From: Bacillota bacterium | Lineage (GTDB): Bacteria; Bacillota; Desulfotomaculia; Desulfotomaculales; JBFMEU01 | Assembly: GCA_040753155.1 (NCBI GenBank) | Contig: JBFMEU010000004.1 | Coordinates: 1,056-65,055 of the forward strand | Direction of reading: 5' to 3' | Length of the DNA: 64,000 bases | Shown: positions 534-64,000 of the stretch, piece after piece | Layout of the letters: every line of letters begins with the position of its first letter | Position numbering within the stretch: the stretch's first letter is position 1 | The notes under the pieces: model-generated | Told to the model about the DNA's origin: nothing | Seen by the model: only the letters and a program-made list of their open reading frames with translations | The model's database searches: none | Made by a program: the position numbers and the translations under genes

Positions 534-677
534 TCACCGAAAACGGGTGGATGGTCCTTTACGTTTTACCATGACCCAGGTAAGCTCCCGCAGGGGATGG
601 TCGTTGCAGAGGGAATGGTTGCAGCTTTTGTACTTAAAATACACTTTCAGGCCGTCGTGCTTGGCGATTCCGGTATA
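534..677 (-). pseudogene. transposase internal fragment (IS66/ISBst12-like), cut off at the family-C repeat
   Basis: 47 codons without a start: YTGIAKHDGLKVYFKYKSCNHSLCNDHPLRELTWV... The C-x-H-x-LREL motif is recalled from IS66-group transposases. The fragment ends abruptly at nt 679/680. Confidence 0.35.
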
Positions 678-679
678 AA

Positions 680-801
680 GAAGACTTGGTTCAGGTGGGG
701 GTTTTAACCCCATCTGAACCTTAGTCGCACTTATTTCGAGTTTACAGCCTGTAAGACCCCGACCTAAGAGGGCGGGGTCTTACAGGCTGTGCGAAGATAA
801 A
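680..801 (+). repeat. family-C interspersed repeat, basal 122 bp form (two hairpins)
   Basis: It has hairpin ggttcaggtgggg..ccccatctgaacc and a roughly 20 bp stem acagcctgtaagaccccg..cggggtcttacaggctgt. It is flanked by tATAAA / gATAAA. The same sequence is nested in B copies at 44.2, 52.1 and 54.5 kb. Confidence 0.8.
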
Positions 802-2711
802 GCCGACCAGGTCCCGGACGACTACCGCTACGAAACACTGACCCTAAACAGCAAGGGATTGACCACATTGTCGAAAACCACCCCACCAATGCCGCTGAAT
901 ATACCTCTGGGGAACGCCAGGTCTTTTACACCTACGACGCCAGGTACAACCGGTTAATCAGCACCAGGACCAAACAGGATGCCGCTACCGACATCGAGGT
1001 AAAATTCACCCTTACCCCCGACGGCAAAGAAGTGGCCTCCCAGGCCACCTATGCCAACAGCCGGCTGTTAAGCCAACAAAGCTACAGTTACGATAACTAC
1101 GGCAATGTAATCTCTAGCACCGCCAGGAAAACGGATTCCGAAAACGTAACCATGAATTTTGCATATGGCCCGGAGTACGGCCACGCCTACCTGACGGCGA
1201 AAAGTATCGTTAACAGGGATGCCGACGGTAATGAGTCCGTCATTGACCTTCGTTATGGATACGACTTTGCCTCCGGCAGCAAAACCAGTGAATCTGACGG
1301 CAACGGCAATGTCACCGCCTTCAAATATGATCTGCTGAACAGACTGGCGGAAATAACTAACCCTGACAAAACCACCCGGCACTATGAATACGACGACGCC
1401 GGGAATATCGCTTACTTTACCGATGAAAACAAAAACCGGACCATTTACCACTTCGACAGCCTGGGCAAGCTTACCAGGGTCAGGGACAACCAGCAAAACA
1501 TCGACCTGATCAACCTCAAATATGACGACCAGTATAACCTGCTGCAAAAAACTGACCCCAACGGTAACTACATCGAATACTCCTATGACCAGTTCAACCG
1601 GTTGCTTAAAGTCAACCACCGGGACAGCCGGGGCAAGAAACTGGCTGAAACCGGCGTGCAATACCACGAGGCAATCCAGGACAGGTCGGGTACTTTGCAA
1701 AAGATTACCGTCAGCAAAGAAGCAGGCCCGGGCAAAAAAGACCTGGTGGTCAACTACTACTATGATGCCCGGGAACAACTGGTAAAACAGGGCCGGCTGC
1801 AGGACGGCGAAGAATATTTTGCTGCCTACTCCTATGATTATCTTGACAACCTCACTGAAGAAGCGGACTATAAAGGTAACCGGACAAAATACACCCTGGA
1901 CGGACTGGGCCGGCTGATCCGGCGAACAAACAGCCTGGGCCAAAGCAAAGAATACGCCTACGACTACCTGGGCAACCGGGTGGCCGAAACCGACGAACTG
2001 GGCCACACCATCCGGACGGAGTACGACGCCCTGGGACGGGTCATGGTCAGCAGGGCGCCCTTTGCGGCGGGGAAAGAGCGGGTAACCCGAAACTATTACG
2101 ACGCCGCCGGCAATATAACCCGCACGGTAGACCCCGAAGGTGGCGTAACCAATTACCAGTACAACAGCCGCAACCTTTTAACCCTGGTGGAAAAGGTCAT
2201 CAGCTCCTGGTCATCCGACTTCGTGCAGTATGACTACGACGCCAAAGGAAACCGCACTAAAGTCGCTGCGGGACTTAGTTCCCCCCAGGCTTCGGCCAGG
2301 GCCGAAACCATGTTCGCATACGATTCCCTGGACAGAATCATCTCTTTTACCGACCCCTCGGGCAAAAAGGAAACCTACCGCTACGACCCCAACGGCAACC
2401 TGCTCACCTCAACAGACCGCAACGGCAGGACCTGCCAATACGCCTACGACGGGCTGAACCGGATCGTCAAAAAACAAATCATCTATAACGGCCGCCCGGA
2501 GACGGTGGAGTACAGCTACGACCTGCTGGGCCACCAAACCCAAATGAAAGACGCCCGGGGAGTCACCAGCTACGAATACGACAGCTTAAGCCGCCTGAGC
2601 AAAATCCGGCAGGACAACGGTATCTCCCTGTCCTACGCCTATGATATACTGGACCGCAAAGTGGGCATGACCTCATCTAATCGGCTCGTTGCCTTCCTGT
2701 TGGGTCGGTGA
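801..2711 (+). pseudogene. RHS/YD-repeat protein, internal fragment
   Basis: There are dozens of YDxxGN/YxYD repeats. The frame is open back to the stop at 798-800 inside repeat C, and YD-like sequence (DDYRYETLTLNSKG) upstream sits in another frame. There is no RHS core end or C-terminal toxin tip, and the ORF runs straight into AT-rich DNA. Confidence 0.8.
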
Positions 2712-3809: not shown

Positions 3810-3849
3810 CTGACATCCTCCCACGGGTGAACCTGCGGGAGGATGTCAG
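3810..3849. repeat. 13 bp perfect-stem hairpin, family-D-like variant
   Basis: ctgacatcctccc-N14-gggaggatgtcag; the core acatcctcc resembles the D-module core acattcctcc. Confidence 0.45.
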
Positions 3850-5860: not shown

Positions 5861-6772
5861 TCAGCTGCGCAGGTATTCATTATAAATGCGCTCCTCATTT
5901 TTCATTCGCAGCAGGCCTTCAGTATGACTTAGCATATCCATGTCAAGAACTTTACCGGCCTTGTCAATGATCAGGCCGGCCCTTAAGGGCCGCTTGGCCG
6001 CCTGGCCGGCCTCATTGGTTGATACCGGTATGATAAGCAGGGGATTCAAGTTGAAGGCGCCGGCTAGCGCAACTGCAAATTCATACCTGCTTACATTAGC
6101 GGCGCCAGCCAGGTTAAATATCCCCGTATGCCTGTCCAGGGCGAGCTCCCGTGAGGCTTCGGCAAGGTTTGCCACATAGGTGGGATTTCCCATTTGATCA
6201 GCCGGTACCTTTACGCTATGACCACACCTTAGATTGTTAATGGCCCTGTGGGCAAAGTTCTTAACAGGGTATTCCCAGCCATAGACCACGGTAACCCGCA
6301 GTATTAAATAGTTAGTCATCTTCCGGATTATTTCGTCTTCAACTTCTAATTTTTGCAAGCCGTAAACATTGACCGGATTGGGCAGGTCATTTTCGGTGTA
6401 AGGCCCATTTTCCCCGTCAAAAACATAATCGGAGGAGTAATATACCAGCTTAATACCGGTCCCGGTCAAGGCGCTGATAACATTGCATGGCCCCTTAACA
6501 TTGATTGCCGCTGAGTCCCCGGGGTGCCGCTCGCACCAGTCCACATGGGGCATGGCCGCGGGAAGATAGATTACATCCGGCCGCATGTTCGCGATTAGCC
6601 TTTTAACAGCCTCTGCATCGGTGAAATCCAGGGGTATAAGGCCCGGGCGGCGATTTTTATAATAGGTGCCGGCCGCTTCACTGCCTGTATTTAGCGACAC
6701 CCGGTAGAGATAGCGCCCGATAAGCCCCGAAGCTCCGATAATAAGTTCTTTCATCCGTGTTTCAAGCTCCAA
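5861..6772 (-). CDS. NAD(P)-dependent sugar-nucleotide reductase, RmlD (dTDP-4-dehydrorhamnose reductase)-like
   Basis: 303 aa with an N-terminal Rossmann motif IIGASGLIGRYL, SDR-like YxxxK context, and RmlD-like length. Confidence 0.65.
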   Translation of the reverse strand: MELETRMKELIIGASGLIGRYLYRVSLNTGSEAAGTYYKNRRPGLIPLDFTDAEAVKRLIANMRPDVIYLPAAMPHVDWCERHPGDSAAINVKGPCNVISALTGTGIKLVYYSSDYVFDGENGPYTENDLPNPVNVYGLQKLEVEDEIIRKMTNYLILRVTVVYGWEYPVKNFAHRAINNLRCGHSVKVPADQMGNPTYVANLAEASRELALDRHTGIFNLAGAANVSRYEFAVALAGAFNLNPLLIIPVSTNEAGQAAKRPLRAGLIIDKAGKVLDMDMLSHTEGLLRMKNEERIYNEYLRS

Positions 6773-7239: not shown

Positions 7240-7357
7240 GCAAATGGTGTGAAGATGTTGTTCTAATACCTTTCTGAGTACGCCGGGAGTGGCGGTCTGC
7301 TTGTTGTGGTAAGGTCACACTTTACAGCCCATTAGAATAGAATGCTAAACCGGATTG

Positions 7358-7488
7358 ATCACTGAACCAATCCGCCCTAAGACCCCCGCCTCTGTAGGCG
7401 GCGGGTTTCAAAGGGCGGTTAAGTCCAGTATGGACTCGGCTAACATTCAGAGGGGGTTGAATCACCCTCTGAATGAAGTCTCGTTCAA
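7358..7488 (+). repeat. family-A 131 bp structured repeat, copy A1
   Basis: atcactgaaccaatccgccc...gaagtctcgttcaa, preceded by ttgat. The flanks ccggattg / caatccgg are reverse complements of each other. Confidence 0.9.
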
Positions 7489-8877: not shown

Positions 8878-8926
8878 GGGGTACAAAAGCAGGTAATTTA
8901 TGATCATAGGGATCAGAATTTGGTAT

Positions 8927-9044
<118 letters not shown>

Positions 9045-10970: not shown

Positions 10971-11148
10971 ATCTAGCGGTACTGAATGTGCAAATGGGAG
11001 AAAATAGCCAAGCAAACCGGAATATAATAGATGTAGGGCGCCATTTTCAACAGCTGAGACCGGTTGGCGGCCGGGTCGAGTTTATGCTATAATTTGGTCA
11101 GGCTTCAACATGAAGCTGCCAATTTCTACTTATTGTGGCACGTTATTC

Positions 11149-11279
11149 ATCACTGAACTAATCCGCCCTAAGACCCCCGCCTCTGTAGGCGGCGGGTTTC
11201 AAAGGGCGGTTAAGTCCAGTATGGACTCGGCTAACATTCAGAGGGGGTTGAATCCCCCTCTGAATGAAGTCTCGTTCAA
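11149..11279 (+). repeat. family-A repeat, copy A2
   Basis: Full-length copy preceded by ttcat. It sits between a TATAAT-containing candidate promoter and the M23 peptidase gene. Confidence 0.9.
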
Positions 11280-15998: not shown

Positions 15999-16061
15999 AT
16001 CACTGGACTCGGCTAACATTCAGAGGGGGTTGAATCCCCCTCTGAATGAAGTCTCGTTCAA
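15999..16061 (+). repeat. family-A repeat, copy A3 (63 bp internal-deletion form keeping both termini)
   Basis: atcact is joined directly to ggactcggctaacattcagaggggg...cgttcaa. It is preceded by tttat. Confidence 0.85.
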
Positions 16062-16267
16062 GCTTTAGGCCAGCTTACTTTTACAGTTAACTTGCATTCC
16101 TCTTCATCTTCGTCAAATTTAATTTTATATTCCAGTTCAACGTCATCAGGCACATGGATTTCCTGACTCTCAATGTTCAGGCTGCCACCTCTTAAACCTC
16201 CCGCTACTTCCATGATAAATTTAATAAAGTCCTGCTTGCCGCCCGTAAATTTTTCTGAGAAATCCAT
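16058..16267 (-). CDS. amphi-Trp domain protein (small acidic protein)
   Basis: 69 aa ending ...KLTVKVSWPKA, with the pattern expected of the amphi-Trp family. Its stop codon is formed by the last bases of repeat A3. Confidence 0.55.
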   Translation of the reverse strand: MDFSEKFTGGKQDFIKFIMEVAGGLRGGSLNIESQEIHVPDDVELEYKIKFDEDEEECKLTVKVSWPKA

Positions 16268-16328: not shown

Positions 16329-16528
<200 letters not shown>

Positions 16529-16627: not shown

Positions 16628-17632
16628 ATGCAGGAAAATACGGACCGGCTGGCCCGGGAGGTGCTGCGCCGTTACCGTATCGAACCGGATTGGATACGAC
16701 TGGTTCAGGGCGGCGGTATTAAAACCGTCTGGCAAGTTGCCGCCGGAAGCCGGTCTCTTTGTCTTAAGCGGCTCCGTCATACCCGGGACAGGGCTCTTTT
16801 TTCAGTGGGAGCCCAGGCGTATATGGCCGGTAAAGGGGCGGCGGTGAGTCCGGTACTGCTTCTCCCGGGTGGTGATTTGATGGTTGAACACGAGGGGTAT
16901 AATTATGTCCTCTACCAGTGGTTCAAAGGCCGCGGCCTGAATTTGTCCCGCAAAGAGGATTTGGCCCGGGGCGTAAGGGGTTTGGCGGCCTTTCACCGGG
17001 ATTCCGCCGGTTACAACCCTCCCCCCGGCGCCCGGGTTTCATCAAAACTAGGCAGGTTGGGGAACTACTACGCCTCGGTAACCAAACGTTTGCTGCAGTG
17101 GCAGGAGCAGGCGCTGGAGCTGGGACAAAACAGTTTAGCCCGGGCCTACCTGGGAGAAGTTGAGGCAGCCCTGGAAATGGCCGGCCGGGCTATGACGTTG
17201 TTGGATCAGTCAATTTACAGTTCCTGGAGCGACCAGTTTGCCGGCGACGCGGGTCTTTGTCATCAAGATTTTGGGGATGGCAATGCGCTCCTTGTTGATA
17301 ACAAGCTGCACATCCTGGACCTGGACGGGGTAACCTTTGATTTGCCTGTCCGGGATTTGCGCAAGCTGCTCTTAAAGCAGATGTCCTCCAGGGGTAAATG
17401 GGACGAAGCATTGCTGCAGGATACTTTAAGTTGGTATAGTGAGATTTATCCTCTTAATCCCTCACAAATTCAGGTTTTGTTGATAGATTTGTTCTTTCCT
17501 CACGAGCTGCACGACAGTGCCAAGAACTATTTTAAAAAGGGCAAAAGTATAAAAGCCGCTGAAATACACCGGGCCGGAGGGGCTCTGCGCCGCAAGAAGG
17601 AATTCCTGGGCAATTATTTATCACTGAACTAA
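16628..17632 (+). CDS. CotS-family spore coat protein kinase-like protein
   Basis: 334 aa with an HQDFGDGN catalytic-loop motif and an aminoglycoside-phosphotransferase-like fold. The last codons SLN-stop lie inside repeat A4. Confidence 0.75.
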   Translation: MQENTDRLAREVLRRYRIEPDWIRLVQGGGIKTVWQVAAGSRSLCLKRLRHTRDRALFSVGAQAYMAGKGAAVSPVLLLPGGDLMVEHEGYNYVLYQWFKGRGLNLSRKEDLARGVRGLAAFHRDSAGYNPPPGARVSSKLGRLGNYYASVTKRLLQWQEQALELGQNSLARAYLGEVEAALEMAGRAMTLLDQSIYSSWSDQFAGDAGLCHQDFGDGNALLVDNKLHILDLDGVTFDLPVRDLRKLLLKQMSSRGKWDEALLQDTLSWYSEIYPLNPSQIQVLLIDLFFPHELHDSAKNYFKKGKSIKAAEIHRAGGALRRKKEFLGNYLSLN

Positions 17633-17750
17633 TCCGCCCTAAGACCCCCGCCTCTGTAGGCGGCGGGTTTCAAAGGGCGGTTAAGTCCAGTATGGACTCG
17701 GCTAACATTCAGAGGGGGTTGAATCCCCCTCTGAATGAAGTCTCGTTCAA
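17620..17750 (+). repeat. family-A repeat, copy A4
   Basis: Full-length copy preceded by tttat. It bridges two cotS-like genes. Confidence 0.9.
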
Positions 17751-31548: not shown

Positions 31549-31641
31549 GTACAGCTTGCGGTTTTTAACTTGCGGGGACAGACCTTTTTACAGGGCTGTC
31601 TCCGTATTTAATCCGTATTTTTAAAAGGAGATGTGTTACAC

Positions 31642-33444: not shown

Positions 33445-33705
33445 CCTGCAGCAGGCACCTATCCCTTGGGCTCAGAGCTGCGTGCCGAAAAGACTTGCGG
33501 CTGGTCGTTAAGCGGGGCTACAGGCCCTGCAAATTGTGCGTGCCAGGTTATTCGTGTTTAAAAACGTTACCTCACATTCAGAATTGCGCTTGTGTTTTAT
33601 TACTGTTACCTGCACGTTTCGGGCCTTAGCCCCGCTAAACTCCGTCGCCGAGTCTTTTGGCGGCACTCCGCTAAATCGCCTGCAGGGATAGGATACCTGC
33701 TGCTT
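33445..33705. repeat. family-E foldback element (about 260 bp imperfect long hairpin)
   Basis: Left arm cctgcagcaggcacctatccc...ttaagcggggcta pairs with right arm tagccccgctaaa...gggataggatacctgctgc. The centre is AT-rich. The left arm recurs at 53410-53520. It lies between convergent genes. Confidence 0.7.
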
Positions 33706-35178: not shown

Positions 35179-35240
35179 GTAACTATTCAGGTATTCAGTT
35201 TCTCATTCTGACTACTGACTCCTGACTCCTGAGTAGTTAC
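35179..35240 (-). mobile_element. family-B element copy B4 (62 bp minimal form: the two TIRs only)
   Basis: gtaactattcaggtattcag-tttctc-attctgactactgactcctgactcctgagtagttac. A perfect 8 bp direct repeat cgccgtta lies on both sides. Confidence 0.85.
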
Positions 35241-43861: not shown

Positions 43862-44129
43862 TGAAGTCATTAAAGCACGGTTATGACGGGGAATAAGGGT
43901 TTAGGAGAATCTCTCAGCGAGCCGGGGTTGGTGCGAGCCTGGCAGAGGAATAAACCTGCCGCCACCCCTGAACTGCAGACCGAAACCCGCGGTAAACGCC
44001 GGGGGGATTAAGTCGGGCCGGCCGCCGCCGTTACCGGCTCCGAGAGGACTGTGCCTTGGCAGGTACAGTCAAGCAGGGTGGTACCGCGAGACATGGTCTC
44101 GTCCCTTAGGGGGCGGGACCTTTTATTTT
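43862..44129 (+). promoter_or_regulatory. T-box riboswitch leader
   Basis: Stem I elements (agcgagccggggttggtgcgagcc), the T-box sequence agcagGGTGGTACCGCG at 44071-44088, and terminator ggtctcgtccc/ggggcgggacc plus ttttatttt. I cannot assign the specifier codon confidently; the loop reads ggaauaaaccu. Confidence 0.8.
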
Positions 44130-44233
44130 GTAACTACTCAGGAGTCAGGAGTCAGGAGTCAGAATGAGAAAACCAGCGAAAACATTTGAAGATTTACTGG
44201 TATGGCAGAAGGCGCACCTGTTTGTATTTGCTG

Positions 44234-44358
44234 TTTATCTTCGCACAGCCTGTAAGACCCCGCCCTCGCATAAGGAAAGGGGACACACCTGCTGAAGCTT
44301 GGGTATTTCTCTGGGGACAGGAATGTCCCCAACGTATGGGTTAAAACCCCGCCTGAAC
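44234..44358 (-). repeat. family-C repeat nested in B8 (partly deleted)
   Basis: tttatcttcgcacagcctgtaagaccccgccctcgcataagg...gggttaaaaccccgcctgaac matches the reverse complement of 52086-52309, with an internal deletion between two ggaatgtccccaac repeats. Confidence 0.75.
44279..44330 (-). repeat. family-D hairpin module (split form)
   Basis: Reverse complement of ggggacattcctgtcccc...aggtgtgtcccc. Confidence 0.6.
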
Positions 44359-44422
44359 GTGACTCCTGACTCCTGAATTCTGAATACCTGAGTAGCTACA
44401 AGAAAGGAGTGATTACGGGATT

Positions 44423-44902
44423 ATGAAGGAAATACTTGAGCTGTTGGAATTCGATGCCAGGCTGACCGCCAATGAGATTGCCGTTATGCTGAACATGGAC
44501 CTGGCGGAAGTCCGGCGCTCCATCAAAGAATTGGAAGACAATAAAACCATTTTAAAGTACATTACCCTGGTGAACTGGGAAAAGGTCGGCGAAGAAAAGG
44601 TGAGCGCCTTTATCGAGGTGCGTACCACCCCCCAGCGGGATGTGGGGTTTGACGCCGTGGCCGAGCGAATCTACCGCTTTCCGGAGGTGCGCAGCGTCAG
44701 GTTGATGAGCGGGGTCTATGACCTGGCCGTGTTTATTGAAGGGCGGACGATGAAGGAAGTGTCCCACTTTGTATCCACCAAACTGGCCACCATTGAGGGT
44801 GTGGTCAGCACCACCACCCACTTTGTTTTAAAGACTTACAAGCAAGACGGCGTCATACTGGATGACGCAGAGGAAGATAGAAGGCTGGTGATATCGCCAT
44901 GA
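44423..44902 (+). CDS. Lrp/AsnC family transcriptional regulator
   Basis: 159 aa with an N-terminal HTH (LELLEFDARLTANEIAVMLNMDLAEVRRSIKELE) and a C-terminal RAM domain. Confidence 0.8.
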   Translation: MKEILELLEFDARLTANEIAVMLNMDLAEVRRSIKELEDNKTILKYITLVNWEKVGEEKVSAFIEVRTTPQRDVGFDAVAERIYRFPEVRSVRLMSGVYDLAVFIEGRTMKEVSHFVSTKLATIEGVVSTTTHFVLKTYKQDGVILDDAEEDRRLVISP

Positions 44903-46190: not shown

Positions 46191-46254
46191 TGAGTCAATG
46201 GGGACGGTTCCTGGTGACTCAGTTGAGTCACCAGGAACCGTCCCCATTGACTCA
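46191..46254. repeat. perfect 31 bp inverted repeat with a 2 nt spacer (64 bp palindrome)
   Basis: tgagtcaatggggacggttcctggtgactca-gt-tgagtcaccaggaaccgtccccattgactca. The core ggggacggttcc resembles the D-module core ggggacattcc. Confidence 0.9.
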
Positions 46255-46314
46255 AGGGGGTTTTTCAGAAATCTAGAAGGATTTTGTCAGATGACAGAGA
46301 ATTATATGTCTTTG

Positions 46315-46421
46315 ATCACTGAACTAATCCGCCCTAAGACCCCCGCCTCTGTAGGCGGCGGGTTTCAAAGGGCGGTTAAGTCCAGTATGGACTCGGCTAA
46401 CATAACACCGGTTTCGTTGAA
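46315..46421 (+). repeat. family-A repeat, copy A5 (third hairpin replaced or deleted)
   Basis: It matches A through ...ggactcggctaacat, then reads aacaccg-gtttcgttgaa. It is preceded by ttgat. Confidence 0.8.
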
Positions 46422-46549
46422 TGCAGGCGCCCGGGTTTTTTGGAGGTATAAGAGCCGGGGTTTAAAGGTTTTTCCGCCCTGGTTATTTTTATGTTCCTGG
46501 CGCCGCCCCGGGGTGTGCCGTCACCTAAGAGCAAGGAAGTGGAAAGCTT

Positions 46550-47923: not shown

Positions 47924-47951
47924 GCAGACAAGGGGACGTCCCCTTGTCTGC
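47924..47951. repeat. perfect 28 nt palindrome
   Basis: gcagacaaggggac|gtccccttgtctgc; the core is ggggacgtcccc. Confidence 0.85.
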
Positions 47952-47984: not shown

Positions 47985-48115
47985 TTGAACGAGACTTCAT
48001 TCAGAGGGGGATTCAACCCCCTCTGAATGTTAGCCGAGTCCATACTGGACTTAACCGCCCTTTGAAACCCGCCGCCTACAGAGGCGGGGGTCTTAGGGCG
48101 GATTAGTTCAGTGAT
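47985..48115 (-). repeat. family-A repeat, copy A6 (inverted orientation)
   Basis: Full-length reverse complement (ttgaacgagacttcattcagaggggg...ggattagttcagtgat), preceded in element orientation by ttaat. Confidence 0.9.
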
Positions 48116-50335: not shown

Positions 50336-51952
<1,617 letters not shown>

Positions 51953-52122
51953 ACCGACCACACTTTACTTCAGCTTTGGTATGGCCAAAGCTTTTGTTAC
52001 TATTCAGGTATTCAGAATTCAGGAGTCAGGATTCAGAATGGACCGTAGATCTCATACTTCGGAAACGCCATAGATAAACGATAAAGAAGACTTGGTTCAG
52101 GTGGGGTTTTAACCCATACGTT

Positions 52123-52153
52123 GGGGACATTCCTCCGAAGGAGGTGTGTCCCC
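52123..52153 (+). repeat. family-D hairpin module
   Basis: ggggacattcctcc-gaa-ggaggtgtgtcccc replaces catctg in the basal C hairpin loop. Confidence 0.7.
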
Positions 52154-52212
52154 TGACCGCTAAACCTTAGTCGCACTTATTTCGAGCTTACAGCCTGTTA
52201 ATCCCATTAGTT

Positions 52213-52264
52213 GGGGACATTCCTGTCCCCAGAGAAATACCCAAGCTTCAGCAGGTGTGTCCCC
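52213..52264 (+). repeat. family-D hairpin module (split/extended form)
   Basis: ggggacattcctgtcccc-agagaaatacccaagcttcagc-aggtgtgtcccc lies inside the long C hairpin. Confidence 0.6.
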
Positions 52265-52445
52265 TTTCCTTATGCGAGGGCGGGGTCTTACAGGCTGTGC
52301 GAAGATAAACCGCAAGTACGAACAGGTGCGCCTTCTGCCATACCAGTAAATCTTCAAATGTTTTCGCTGGTTTTCTCATTCTGACTCCTGACTTCTGACT
52401 CCTGACTCCTGAGTAGTTACAAGTTTTTTTTGAGGAGGGGTTTGC

Positions 52446-53393
52446 ATGAAGCGCAAGGTAATAGCCGCGGCTGTAATTGCCGTGGTCCTGATTTCCCTGG
52501 TGGCAGCCTCCGCCCGCCTGGCCAGCCGGGATTTAATGGCTGCAGGGGCGGGCAAAGACCGGGTGGCCGTACTGCATATCAGCGGGGTGATTATGGGGGG
52601 CAAGGGTGTAGGCGGCCTTTTCGGGGCAACCACCGGGGCTGACGATATGATGGGCCTGCTGCGGGAGGTTGGCCGGGATCCCTCCATCAAGGCCGTGGTG
52701 TTAAGAATTAACAGCCCTGGCGGCACCACCGGGGCCTCCCAGGAACTGGGCATGGAAATAGAGAGGCTGCGGGAGTCGGGGGTGGTAGTGGTCGCCTCCA
52801 TGTCTGATGTGGCAGCCTCCGGGGGCTACTGGATTTCAGCCTGCAGCGACTACATTATGGCCTCACCCGGCACAACCACCGGCAGTATCGGGGTGATTAT
52901 TGAAACCCAGGACCTGCAGGGCCTGTATGATAAATTGGGCATAGACAGCGACGTATTCAAGAGCGGGCCCCATAAAGACATGGGTTCCCCCAACCGGGAC
53001 CTTACGCAAACCGAAAGGGCCATTTTGCAGGGCATGGTGGATGATCTGTACCAGCAGTTTGTTGACGTAGTGGCCAAAGGGCGGGACCTGGACCGGGCGC
53101 AGGTGCTGGAGATTGCTGACGGGCGGGTCTTTACCGGCCGCCAGGCCATGGAGGCCGGGCTGGTGGATGAAATGGGGAATTATTATGATGCCGTGGCCAA
53201 GGCCGCGGAGTTGGCCGGCATCGAGGGTGAGCCGGAAATTTATGAGCTTGAACCCCTTGGGGGCTGGCAAAGCTTGCTGGGTGAAATTCGCCTGGGCCGG
53301 CTGGCGGGTCCCTGGCAGCAGCAGCCCGTCCCTGTGCCCGCAGGACTGTGGCTGCTGGACCCCAACCTGCCGGCGGGATATTATGCCCGGTAG
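52446..53393 (+). CDS. sppA: signal peptide peptidase SppA (36K type)
   Basis: 315 aa with an N-terminal TM helix and the GGYWISA serine motif region. Confidence 0.85.
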   Translation: MKRKVIAAAVIAVVLISLVAASARLASRDLMAAGAGKDRVAVLHISGVIMGGKGVGGLFGATTGADDMMGLLREVGRDPSIKAVVLRINSPGGTTGASQELGMEIERLRESGVVVVASMSDVAASGGYWISACSDYIMASPGTTTGSIGVIIETQDLQGLYDKLGIDSDVFKSGPHKDMGSPNRDLTQTERAILQGMVDDLYQQFVDVVAKGRDLDRAQVLEIADGRVFTGRQAMEAGLVDEMGNYYDAVAKAAELAGIEGEPEIYELEPLGGWQSLLGEIRLGRLAGPWQQQPVPVPAGLWLLDPNLPAGYYAR

Positions 53394-53409
53394 ATATACT
53401 CATCTTATT

Positions 53410-53520
53410 CCTGCAGCAGGTACCTATCACCTTGGCTCAAGAGCTGCGAAAATTGGGGACATTCCCCACAGGGGTGTGTTCCCATACCTAAGCCAAAGAC
53501 TTGCGGCTCGTCGTTAAGCG
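53410..53520 (+). repeat. family-E repeat, copy E2 (left arm only, with a D module inserted)
   Basis: cctgcagcaggtacctatcaccttggctcaagagctgcg-[D]-gccaaagacttgcggctcgtcgttaagcg aligns to 33446-33513. Confidence 0.7.
53455..53483 (+). repeat. family-D hairpin module inside E2
   Basis: ggggacattcccc-aca-ggggtgtgttccc. The 43 nt insert at 53449-53491 is absent from E1. Confidence 0.6.
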
Positions 53521-53583
53521 TTGAGAACCAGTGATTTTTCCCAATATATGTATTTTAGCCGTTGCTTGAGAGGGGGCATCTTC

Positions 53584-54372
53584 ATGGCGGAAGATAAACA
53601 GCAGTCCAGTAGCATGGAACCCGGGGATGCGGGCGACGCGGCGATTGACCTGAACCAGGACAAGGACAGCGGTAAAGACCCGGTTGCTGCGGGGCTGGCT
53701 GGCGGTGAGGCCTGCCCCATTGATTCGGGCGCACTGGTACCGGGCCGGGAGGGGCTATTGGAACTGATCTACGGGGTGCTTTTTGACCCGGCCAATACCT
53801 TTCGCTGTATTGCCCCCCGGCCGCCAATACTGTTAACTTTAATTATTTTTTCCCTTTTGAACTTAACCCTCTCCCTGATGGGGTATATTGTTATTGCCAG
53901 ACTATTTTTTGCCGATGTCGCAACACCCCTGGCCAACTGGTATTTGCACGGTCTGGGTCCGCTTCTGGTGCTGGGGGGGCTTGCTGTTCACTATACCAAA
54001 TGGTTTGTTTACAGCGGTTTGCTAAACCTGCTGGCAGAGCTACTGGGGGGCCGGGGCCGGGCCCGGAGTGTTTTTGTTGTTTACGGGCTGGCCGGAATTC
54101 CCACCGCCCTGATGGCACCCGTCCTGATGCTGTTTTTAGTCATCCTGCCGCCGGGCTTTCCCGGCCTTCCCCTGGCGGTACTTACCGCCCTGGGGGTGGT
54201 TGCCTGGAGTACGGCGCTCCTGGTGGTGGGGATCAGGGAGGCGCACAGCCTGTCCACCTACCGGGCCGCCCTGGTGGTTGCAACTCCGGTGGCTGCCCTG
54301 TTTATAGCCCTGATCTGCGGTTTTTTGTTGTTAATAGCCATTTCGGCCCGGCTGTACACTTTGTTCGGCTAA
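53584..54372 (+). CDS. Yip1-family multi-pass membrane protein
   Basis: The ATG at 53584 has a GAGGGGG RBS. A low-complexity N-terminus is followed by LLELIYGVLFDPANTF and five TM helices. Confidence 0.5.
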   Translation: MAEDKQQSSSMEPGDAGDAAIDLNQDKDSGKDPVAAGLAGGEACPIDSGALVPGREGLLELIYGVLFDPANTFRCIAPRPPILLTLIIFSLLNLTLSLMGYIVIARLFFADVATPLANWYLHGLGPLLVLGGLAVHYTKWFVYSGLLNLLAELLGGRGRARSVFVVYGLAGIPTALMAPVLMLFLVILPPGFPGLPLAVLTALGVVAWSTALLVVGIREAHSLSTYRAALVVATPVAALFIALICGFLLLIAISARLYTLFG

Positions 54373-54513
54373 TATTATTTGGCCGGCCTGAAGGGATTTC
54401 TTTCCATAGCAGCGAATGCATATCATTATTATTCAGGTATTCAGAATTCAGGAGTCAGAATTCAGAATAACCGTATATCTCATACTTCGGAAACGCCATG
54501 GATAAACGATAAA

Positions 54514-54637
54514 GAAGACTTGGTTCAGGTGTGGTTTTAACCCATACGTTGGGGACATTCCTCCGAAGGAGGTGTGTCCCCTGACCGCTAAACCTTAGTC
54601 ACACTTATTTCGAGCTTACAGGCTGTGCGAAGATAAA
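54514..54637 (+). repeat. family-C repeat nested in B10 (124 bp form; long hairpin collapsed)
   Basis: gaagacttggttcaggtgtgg...cgagcttaca|ggctgtgcgaagataaa. The deletion lies between cttaca repeats. Confidence 0.75.
54551..54581 (+). repeat. family-D hairpin module
   Basis: Identical to 52123-52153. Confidence 0.7.
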
Positions 54638-54782
54638 CCGCAAGTACAAACAGGTGCGCCTTCTGCCATACCAGTAAATCTTTAAATGTTTTTGCTGGTT
54701 TTCTAATTCTGACTCCTGATTTAAAAAAGGATTTTTCTCTTATAACGGCGTATGTATATTAATCATAAATTTATAAGCAGCC

Positions 54783-54853
54783 CTGCCGGCGCGGAGTATT
54801 GGAGTGAGCGGCGCCAACGCCGCGCCTTAACACAGGTATTCCTGAATGCATAC
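54783..54853 (+). repeat. family-F 71 nt conserved motif, copy F2
   Basis: ctgccggcgcggagtattggagtgagcgg...ccttaacacaggt...ctgaatgcatac. It overlaps the track start codon at 54846. Confidence 0.6.
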
Positions 54854-58850: not shown

Positions 58851-58874
58851 TTACTGTGAAAATAGTCCTGATTA

Positions 58875-59043
58875 GTAACTACTCAGGAGTCAGGAGTCAG
58901 TAGTCAGGAGTCAGAATGAGTCTTGGATACGGTGATATTTACGAAACAAAACTTCTCTTGTAAGAGGTTGGTAAATTGCTGGAAGCATATTCTCGGGGCA
59001 TTCTGAATTCTGACTCCTGAATTCTGAATACCTGAATAGTAAC
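58875..59043 (+). mobile_element. family-B element copy B7 (both TIRs plus the 3' end of the four-helix-bundle gene)
   Basis: The left TIR runs up to atgag, then LGYGDIYETKLLL-EVGKLLEAYSRG-like C-terminal coding remnant, then the right TIR. A perfect 8 bp direct repeat cctgatta lies on both sides. Confidence 0.85.
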
Positions 59044-63898: not shown

Positions 63899-63903
63899 GC
63901 TTC

Positions 63904-64000
63904 ATCACTGAACTAATCCGCCCTAAGACCCCCGCCTCTGTAGGCGGCGGGTTTCAAAGGGCGGTTAAGTCCAGTATGGACTCGGCTAACATTCAGAGGG
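63904..64000 (+). repeat. family-A repeat, copy A7 (cut by the window end)
   Basis: atcactgaactaatccgccc...ggctaacattcagaggg, preceded by ttcat. It starts 6 nt after the radical SAM gene stop. Confidence 0.9.

Follow-up and report, generated by a model that had tools for sequence, protein, structure and literature searches.

The 64-kb stretch of Bacillota DNA analysed here (the window) carries, in the spacers between its genes, short repeats that are nested in one another, and the innermost of these, element D, is the subject of this report. D is an oriented imperfect hairpin with a core of 30–50 nt, or about 42–67 nt with its flanks. Four of its copies fall within 51950–54850, where the gene order is pyrG, sppA, a Yip1-family gene and a response regulator gene, and the fifth lies between a T-box leader and its operon. 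Direct reading, together with exact and one-mismatch searches with the arms, confirmed the five copies at the coordinates proposed in the initial annotation. The left arm GGGGACATTCC is found exactly five times in the window, once in each copy; the right arm is GGTGTGTCCCC except in the third copy, where it reads GGTGTGTTCCC, and with one mismatch allowed it occurs six times, a number that none of 100 shuffles reached. A covariance model trained solely on copies from other genomes retrieved exactly the five copies from the window, at 62.5, 62.5, 51.9, 34.6 and 34.6 bits (E-values 7e-17 to 3e-8). Three further palindromes that had been listed as possible relatives proved not to be D: those at 3810–3849 and 46191–46254 gave no model match, and that at 47924–47951 scored 7 bits (E = 9). 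A borderline match at 31564–31611 is an unrelated intergenic hairpin.

Copies of D and the repeats that carry them

Copy 1 (52116–52162, + strand, 62.5 bits) represents the short form and consists of the leader ATACGTT, a hairpin at 52123–52153 (GGGGACATTCC TCC GAA GGA GGTGTGTCCCC) and the trailer TGACCGCTA. It sits within the first hairpin of a host repeat, B (called C in the initial annotation). Copy 2 (52206–52272, + strand, 34.6 bits) is of the long form, with the leader ATTAGTT, a hairpin at 52213–52264, the trailer TTTCCTTA and an apical region of 26 nt, TGTCCCCAGAGAAATACCCAAGCTTCAGCA; in the second B hairpin, it stands in place of the inner 5' arm and the loop. Copy 3 (53449–53491, + strand, hairpin 53455–53483, 51.9 bits), a short form inside the repeat E2 between sppA and the Yip1-family gene, belongs to a different sublineage, with the inner stem CCCC/GGGG, the right arm GTGTGTTCCC and the trailer ATACCTAA. 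Copy 4 (54544–54590, + strand, hairpin 54551–54581, 62.5 bits) is identical to copy 1, and copy 5 (44271–44337, - strand, hairpin 44279–44330, 34.6 bits) is again a long form. The three sublineages that coexist here are each common to other genera. The exact 31-mer of copy 1 recurs in four other assemblies (at L012, L015, L025, L033 and L034, where L-numbers label DNA loci outside the window), the long-form sublineage of copy 2 is found at L029, L030, L044, L069, L099, L104 and L106, and the copy 3 variant at L040 and L109; copy 3 itself is present in the sister strains L119–L121.

The repeats that carry D were delimited by self-BLAST and by reading all related stretches. Element A, of about 200 nt, ends in inverted repeats, GT(T/A)ACTAYTCAGG, and contains the heptamer AGTCAGG in runs. 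Element B, of about 127 nt, forms two strong hairpins and has an ATAAA direct repeat at its bounds; its end, ...ACAGGCTGT.GCGA(A)GATAAA, is conserved across genera (for example at L030 3939–4068 and L094 1340–1520). A TTTAT/ATAAA duplication like that of B is also known from bcr1 of the Bacillus cereus group. The nesting order in the window is D within B within A, and B also stands alone, without D, at 675–803 (+ strand), where it serves as the empty-site reference for both B hairpins; there they fold at -12.9 and -26.6 kcal/mol (z = -5 and -10). The point at which B entered A can be read from an A copy at 16329–16528, in which GATAAA is joined directly to CCGCAA.

The largest composite, an A element with B and two copies of D (51996–52420, + strand), lies between pyrG and sppA. 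Its B, at 52086–52304 (+ strand) and holding copies 1 and 2, is bounded by ATAAA repeats at 52081–52085 and 52305–52309, and the whole is flanked by an 8-bp duplication, AAGCTTTT (51988–51995) and AAGTTTTT (52421–52428). The 99.9%-identical loci L119 and L120 lack this 425-nt unit, which was inserted 26 nt 5' of the sppA start codon, and their empty site (L119 1940–2010, and L120) reads GGCCAAAGCTTTTTTTGAGG. Because the composite is missing from so close a strain and is flanked by the duplication, A is a recently active miniature inverted-repeat transposable element (MITE) with B and D as passengers, and D inside this larger MITE has been multiplied passively. A second A/B/D composite (54424–54722, + strand) carries copy 4, lacks its 3' end and has the second B hairpin deleted; the identity of the D copies at 52123 and 54551 goes back to copying of the A/B composite as a whole, so that the two count as a single D event. 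The third (44128–44401, - strand) carries copy 5. Its B is a variant, also present in Peptococcaceae bacterium BRH_c8a (L029), in which D and its flanks stand in place of about 60 nt located between the B hairpins. Recombinational chimera is the best reading for some B variants, among them the window copy with two D and the copy at 44279; a co-transferred flank, TTAA(T)CCCAT(A/T)(C/A)GTT, precedes both D copies in 52086–52304. Four of the five window copies thus travel as passengers of A/B composites, and the five copies trace back to only about three independent D insertions: a short D in B hairpin 1, a long D in B, and the third sublineage in E2.

Comparison with the nearest sequenced relative (L136 9900–12000; SppA 78% identical), which is syntenic with the window over 51950–54850, places these repeats in context. 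Its spacers measure 55, 46 and 100 nt, against 494, ~130–190 and 474 nt in the window, that is, they are 4–9 times shorter, which indicates that most of the non-coding DNA here is repeat invasion; no D was found in 21 kb of its syntenic DNA. Three nested layers of repeats have therefore inflated the intergenic spacers several-fold, and since a composite differs between 99.9%-identical strains, they bear on the evolution of promoters and leaders. The repeats also affect metagenome assembly, binning and strain typing.

Further traces of the host repeats were observed. The T-box leader at 43874–44109 (94.4 bits) is split from its operon, which begins at 44423 and encodes an AsnC-type regulator and an aminotransferase, by the inverted composite of about 275 nt, placed just after the leader. 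Shortened or internally deleted derivatives of A at 8924–9044, 58872–59043 and 35180–35240 are little more than the pair of terminal repeats plus enlarged runs of the heptamer, (AGTCAGG/AGCCAGA)n, and the last of them has CGCCGTTA on both sides, another 8-bp duplication.

Fold, covariation and orientation of D

The outer arms of D are nearly invariant (GGGGACATT on the 5' side, TGTGTCCCC on the 3' side) and form eight pairs, the innermost being a fixed T·G that is followed by a fixed T·T mismatch. In the window copies this shoulder is succeeded by CC/GG and a further paired segment. The inner stem comprises 4–5 bp, and the apex is either a 3-nt loop (short form) or a semi-conserved insert of about 25 nt (long form); the distance between the 9-nt arms is bimodal, 11–13 or 33–36 nt, and the long-form interior follows the pattern CCTC..C(C)CCA(A/G)AG...T.CCC..(A)GAGG. 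The right arm always resembles a ribosome-binding site, with GGAGG, GAGG or GGGG followed by TG. Outside the hairpin, a 5' leader of 3–9 nt and a 3' trailer, wTwCC(TTA/GCT), complete the unit. Conservation is stronger on the right flank (C at +4 in 146 of 164 copies, C at +5 in 115 and T at +6 in 109) than on the left, where it is weak and the sequence depends on the lineage (T at -2 in 102 of 165, a pyrimidine at -1 in 137 of 165), with the leaders ATACGTT, AAGTAC, CAAAA, ATC and ATA in different lineages.

The stem is maintained by compensatory change. Among 36 distinct short-form copies, 96.7% of cells are paired, and the inner stem covaries: pair 20–28 is UA in 22 copies and CG in 13, pair 21–27 is CG in 23, UA in 5, UG in 4 and GC in 1, and pair 22–26 is CG in 9 and UA in 6. 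None of 500 shuffles reached the observed covariation score, and the signal was lost when the partners were slid against each other. The outermost pair covaries too, from G-C to A-T. Throughout, the left arm stays pyrimidine and the right arm purine, which is what transitions via wobble intermediates would produce.

The T-G oppositions in the stem had been taken as a hint that the structure matters as RNA, or as a single strand, in one orientation. The T·G itself is real, being invariant in 36 of 36 aligned copies, but the T·T mismatch that accompanies it is symmetric on both strands. As single-stranded DNA (ssDNA), the two strands of copy 1 fold equally well (-11.9 kcal/mol, z -3.8, for the given strand and -12.3 for its complement), and the z-scores of the folded hairpins lie between -3.8 and -4.7. 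In the RNA folds, the given strand has the advantage, by 1.6 kcal/mol in copy 1 (-25.2 vs -23.6) and by 6.6 in the E2 copy (-21.3 vs -14.7). The sequence, in turn, is strongly asymmetric, since the covariance model gives 62.5 bits on one strand and 13.2 on the opposite one, which points to recognition of two different arms rather than to G·U pairing.

Orientation argues against the RNA or one-strand reading as well. Of the 160 copies outside the window, 144 lie outside called open reading frames (ORFs), and most of the other 16 are near ORF edges; the spacers concerned are co-directional, convergent and divergent alike. D points the same way as co-directional flanking genes in 41 cases and the opposite way in 31, is split 42:44 relative to the gene-majority strand of its locus, and is split 56:57 relative to local GC skew. 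Orientation is thus unbiased with respect to both genes and GC skew, and this speaks against a transcript-level role and against the lagging-strand targeting known from IS200/IS605 elements.

These data also bear on the idea that D benefits the host in cis, is retained by selection and is only dispersed by repeats, whether as a site on DNA for a conserved Bacillota protein or as an RNA hairpin with a part in stability, processing or the sequestration of Shine-Dalgarno sequences. Several features would suit such a role: the same arms in several Bacillota classes, a T·G/T·T shoulder fixed in every aligned copy, covariation that preserves the stem, the almost exclusively intergenic location and the somewhat more stable + strand RNA fold. 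A defined function is hard to reconcile, however, with an orientation that is random to flanking genes and to the gene-majority strand, with an unconstrained position relative to genes, and with nesting to five layers and burial in other repeats (see below). The nearest relative does without D throughout 21 kb of syntenic DNA, and no Rfam family matched: at gathering thresholds, the whole window returned only the T-box and a tRNA, and at E<=10 the region 51950–54760 gave chance matches to eukaryotic microRNAs and long non-coding RNAs and a sub-threshold match to the small RNA ArcZ (17.9 vs 66 bits). We therefore judge a selected cis function to be distinctly unlikely.

Distribution and insertion sites in other genomes

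The pattern GGGGACATTCC-N(3-33)-GGTGTGT was scanned against one genome per species, 596 Gb in total. It was found in at least 118 stretches from at least 80 assemblies, and bona fide D occurs in at least about 75 species of several Bacillota classes. For the 18 specified bases, some hundreds of matches would be expected by chance in a set of this size (our own arithmetic); about 115 of the 118 matches listed also carry the CCCC tail, the paired inner stem and the trailer, none of which the pattern demanded. Three of the listed matches, in metagenome-assembled genomes (MAGs) labelled Acidimicrobiia, Planctomycetaceae and Alistipes, look like chance. Hosts among the matches listed include Desulfotomaculia/Peptococcaceae, Syntrophomonadaceae, Hungateiclostridiaceae/Ruminiclostridium, Sedimentibacter/Tissierellia, Dethiobacter, Thermacetogeniaceae and others, with cultured, genome-sequenced anaerobes such as Desulfoscipio, Desulfotruncus, Desulfocucumis, Pelotomaculum, Sedimentibacter and Ca. 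Formimonas. Among viral contigs, 14 matched the pattern and 5 carried bona fide D, near tail, portal and similar genes and with no enrichment, and the PLSDB plasmid collection held no match to the 49-nt D unit.

A few matches fall under unexpected labels. Long contigs of L020, L038 and L058 (MAGs labelled 'delta proteobacterium') and of L030 (labelled Actinomycetota and also holding an empty B) carry bona fide D, which could reflect mislabelling or misbinning, or real spread beyond the phylum. In the Syntrophomonas MAG L031 (5171–5440, 32–160 and 2525–2700), the right arm of D alone recurs with a period of 86–87 nt, in units with conserved ends and variable middles whose layout resembles a repeat-spacer array.

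Filled and empty sites show that a unit of leader, hairpin and trailer replaces a few target bases (1–10). The initial annotation had described 43 nt inserted into E2 relative to E1, and this is borne out: E2 (53410–53520, + strand) is 87% and 96% identical to the D-less E1 (33445–33514, + strand) on the two sides of D, and at the point occupied by the unit 53449–53491, E1 reads GAGCTGCG-T-GCC, so that a single T is replaced. It had further placed a 47-nt swap for CATCTG in the loop of the first B hairpin; the swap holds, as CATCTG in the copy at 675–803 corresponds to 52116–52162, but the site is the 3' arm of a continuous 13-bp stem and not a loop. In B hairpin 2, the inner 5' arm and the loop are replaced. 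These events are insertions and not deletions in the shorter copies, because the D-less B hairpins are complete and very stable, because the B family in other genera is either empty or filled with D at varied sites, and because D also turns up in unrelated surroundings in at least about 75 species. Across genera, D occupies four different positions in B, in both orientations: after ACCGAAC at L036, L097 and L117; after TTAGTTCG at L092 and L094; after ACCC, the site used in the window, at L012, where D is two-layered; and at L002 and L019 as a reversed nested pair that replaces GAACTAA. B is empty at L030.

A specificity for hairpin loops, as had been suggested, does not hold, since the targets include stem arms, stem feet and linkers besides loops, and E1 is not a significant hairpin (z = 0.06). 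The bases to the left of D differ between targets (..ACCC, ..CGAAC, ..GTTCG, ..CTGCG and ..ACATT). Likewise, among 88 solo copies, no shared flank k-mer (k = 3–5) was enriched at any offset pair over shuffled pairings, that is, there is no sign of target-site duplication. This weighs heavily on the notion that D is a micro-MITE of a DDE transposon, whose 11-bp terminal inverted repeats, GGGGACATTCC and GGGGACACACC, would surround a variable cargo. The two arms are indeed imperfect inverted repeats (9 of 11 positions matching), and what lies between them varies from a 3-nt loop through a 25-nt insert to a whole nested D. Target bases are lost, however, and not duplicated, the conserved unit extends asymmetrically past the arms into leader and trailer, and no pair of left and right arms encloses a gene; we give this notion hardly any credence. 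We also rejected a reading of the arms as TG...CA termini of an outward-pointing element, which leaves the nested arrays and the covarying inner stem unexplained.

D had been described as occurring only inside other repeats. The preference extends beyond the window. D is often placed in palindromic repeats, above all in other copies of D, and occurs solo, in tandem and nested. Seventy-one of the 160 copies outside the window (44%) are nested in or adjacent to another D, 22 of them fully nested, 24 half-nested and 25 with a tandem neighbour; tandem and nested arrays thus arise because copies accumulate in or next to D itself. The deepest nested array has five layers (L086); every layer brings a leader and a trailer of its own, and layers farther out are more degenerate. 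A D that hosts another retains the left arm and the 3' inner half-stem but has lost the 5' half-stem and the loop. Neighbouring copies tend to point the same way (18:3 within 300 nt and 22:7 at greater distances), which we tentatively attribute to local duplication or nesting and to shared host elements. For 39 of 85 solo copies, the flank recurs elsewhere within just 0.9 Mb of sampled DNA. D also lies within terminator-like hairpins (L126, L086) and, as judged by eye, directly 3' of others that carry T-runs, in DNA that seems to be unique (L064, L114); in E2, in the terminator-like hairpins and in the seemingly unique DNA, it is always the same unit of leader, hairpin and trailer.

Such associations raise the question of whether D moves by itself at all, or is an immobile structural module that rides in larger elements of the MITE type (A, B, E and relatives in other genera) and is reshuffled between repeats by tandem duplication, unequal crossing-over and illegitimate recombination. 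Much in the data agrees with a mere passenger: four of the five window copies ride in A/B composites, the unit actually caught moving is A with B and D, chimeric B variants exist, 39 of 85 solo copies lie in other recurrent modules, and tandem arrays with co-oriented neighbours are common. What a passenger would not explain is the presence of D at at least four positions and in both orientations within one B family that also occurs empty, the recurrence of one and the same unit in E2, terminator-like hairpins and apparently unique DNA, and the regular nested arrays (L^n..R^n, L and R being the two arms), whose layers, each with its own leader and trailer, do not come from simple duplication. 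We consider an immobile D unlikely on these grounds.

Probable mobility of D and its candidate agents

Taken together, the insertion sites suggest that D is, or recently was, mobile in its own right, and we think it probable that D is a very small non-autonomous insertion element acting at the DNA level. Its asymmetric, invariant arms with the T·G/T·T shoulder may form the recognition site of a trans-acting enzyme specific for both structure and sequence, and the lineage-specific leaders and trailers would reflect amplification within each genome from local master copies. As the agent, an HUH/Y1-type ssDNA enzyme, such as acts on repetitive extragenic palindromic (REP) sequences, is our leading candidate, if a tentative one; the class-wide invariance of the arms fits an enzyme. 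Propagation of the hairpin by replication stalling and template switching between hairpins is a slightly less favoured option, with which the variable leader length, the loss of target bases, the co-transferred flank and the frequent chimeras agree.

Several observations weigh against a mobile D. About 1 Mb of D-bearing loci, together with the window, yielded no Y1 transposase to tblastn at E<0.1, a search in which the IS608 TnpA and E. coli RAYT queries were approximate and about one match was expected. An all-against-all BLAST of 1,724 ORFs in the neighbourhood of D found only ABC-transporter-like ATPases (recognised by eye) to be enriched, and nothing transposase-like was encoded between inverted D pairs or between left and right arms 0.2–4 kb apart. 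Between close strains, D alone showed no presence/absence polymorphism: at every D site, L119–L121, L138 and L139 agree with the window. Junctions vary in leader length (3–9 nt) and in the number of replaced bases, and several B variants are recombinational chimeras, so that some of the 'insertions' may be products of recombination. D shows no relation to GC skew, unlike IS200/IS605 elements, and the exact conservation of its arms across classes could reflect a host function. Nor did the one transposase gene found close to D qualify as its enzyme. On the viral contig L126, D lies 170 nt upstream of an IS91-family Y2 transposase gene, but among 80 metagenomic relatives it is present only in one near-clonal set of 95–100% identity, which we regard as coincidence. 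In the L126 set, D stands about 150 nt outside the point at which related IS91-like copies begin to align, and with no fixed position in those copies it was also rejected as an IS91-family end (the oriIS/terIS hairpin).

The IS91-family element itself (Y2_Tnp and Zn_Tnp_IS91; L126 4098–2770 on the - strand, and L140–L219) is common in anaerobic-digester metagenomes. Alignment between related copies starts some 70 nt ahead of the ATG, at ..GTTCTTGAT.., and a 30-bp palindrome, CCCTATATAGAACACGTGTTCTATATAGGG, stands just before the start codon.

We file D as a 'very small non-autonomous hairpin repeat' that belongs to no named family and is most like the REP/REPIN repeats and the small dispersed repeats (SDRs) of cyanobacteria. 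A search of the literature by arm sequence, topic and taxon found no description of D, and broad surveys of REPs do not mention its host taxa. With the REPs and REPINs of Escherichia coli and Pseudomonas, D shares short imperfect palindromes that are extragenic, numerous and free of target-site duplication, a stem kept by compensatory change, a conserved unpaired feature and presumed mobilisation in trans by a single-copy enzyme. It differs from them in having no GTAG/CGTC head and no inverted doublets, in forming nested arrays of the same orientation, and in occurring in several classes and not in one genus.

These differences decide largely against D being itself a member of the REP/REPIN class, mobilised by a RAYT, a Y1 HUH transposase with one gene per genome. 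D has a conserved unpaired shoulder, a typical trait of the hairpins that Y1 enzymes (IS608 TnpA, RAYTs) recognise; it is also an extragenic imperfect palindrome of 30–50 nt, present in many copies without target-site duplication. Group 1 RAYTs do occur in Clostridia (PMC5581495). In place of a fixed head of the GTAG/CGTC type, however, there are only the preferences at -2 and -1 described above, neighbours are oriented alike (18:3 same to opposite) where inverted pairs would be the rule, the approximate Y1 queries recovered no gene from about 1 Mb, and D spans several classes while REP families are normally genus-specific. True membership in that class is accordingly, in our estimate, very unlikely. 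Nor was complementarity between leader and trailer, or covariation between leader and target, the signature of an HUH guide, seen in listings judged by eye.

The likeness to SDR4–6 of heterocystous cyanobacteria is one of behaviour only: both are hairpin modules of tens of nucleotides, those of cyanobacteria being presented as mobile with no known enzyme. SDRs, described by Elhai and colleagues in 2008, reportedly also occur inside MITEs and inside each other. Unlike SDRs, D belongs to another phylum and presumably has an unrelated sequence, is longer (a 30–50 nt core plus flanks), has long and short forms, and has identical arms common to many genera and classes. D and the SDRs further share precise insertion into other short repeats; according to PMC4390886, the insertion point of SDR5 lies between bases three and four of HIP1, and SDR4–6 of Elhai et al. 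are cited in both PMC4390886 and PMC3116915.

Other hairpin-based systems resemble D in part. IS200/IS605 elements and PATEs likewise have hairpins with an essential mismatch that are recognised on one strand, leave no duplication and give rise to non-autonomous derivatives; they have two subterminal hairpins in direct orientation, whereas D has one. IS200/IS605 elements insert 3' of a fixed tetra- or pentanucleotide with a bias for the lagging-strand template, whereas D uses no fixed word, shows no skew bias and replaces target bases. The attC sites of integrons are also imperfect hairpins, recombined as folded single strands, with a conserved outer part containing unpaired bases and a centre of very variable length. 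D has none of their RYYYAAC/GTTRRRY core sites, cassette arrays or integrase context: read directly, the sequences show GTT on the 5' side in only some lineages, with no matching 3' core and no cassette ORFs between copies. Modular and nested MITEs such as BOX, Correia and bcr1 are, like D, intergenic, palindromic and modular, and the hosts A (8-bp duplication) and B (ATAAA) are elements of that kind. D, in contrast, is several-fold smaller, makes no duplication and, as the innermost guest, is not a classical MITE with terminal inverted repeats.

To our knowledge, the mechanism by which most very small dispersed bacterial hairpins (REPs, SDRs) spread has not been established. Among these least-understood repeats, D offers a tractable case, with a sharp oriented consensus, many filled and empty sites and self-nesting that records successive events. 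Because the consensus is sharp, such sites are many and the hosts include cultured and sequenced strains, a search for the enzyme by phylogenetic profile and a biochemical test are feasible. More speculatively, D might be the visible half of an undescribed system of hairpin-DNA propagation that is widespread in anaerobic Bacillota and works by a dedicated enzyme or by none. With an enzyme, a structure-specific ssDNA-processing protein would insert units of about 45 nt into palindromes, removing a few bases of the target in the process, and the hairpin of D itself would be its preferred target, giving rise to nested arrays. Without one, a 'selfish hairpin' would stall replication and template its own copy into other stalled hairpins. 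In either case, D would rank among the smallest self-propagating DNA units known and would stand at the bottom of a three-level hierarchy of parasite upon parasite, D in B in A.

Two other repeat families share the window with D. A family of about 137 nt has copies at 7352–7488, 11143–11279, 17614–17750, 46309–46445 and 63901–64000 and partial copies at 16004–16064 and 47985–48040 (5–7 copies, 93–100% identity), with the hairpins CCCCCGCCTCTGTAGGCGGCGGG and TTCAGAGGGGGTTGAATCCCCCTCTGAA. The perfect 64-bp palindrome at 46191–46254 (GGGGACGGTTCCTGGTGACTCA...) represents a palindromic family separate from D; one of its motifs, AAGGGGACGGTTCT, also flanks D in Pelotomaculum propionicicum (L084, ~6450–6560).

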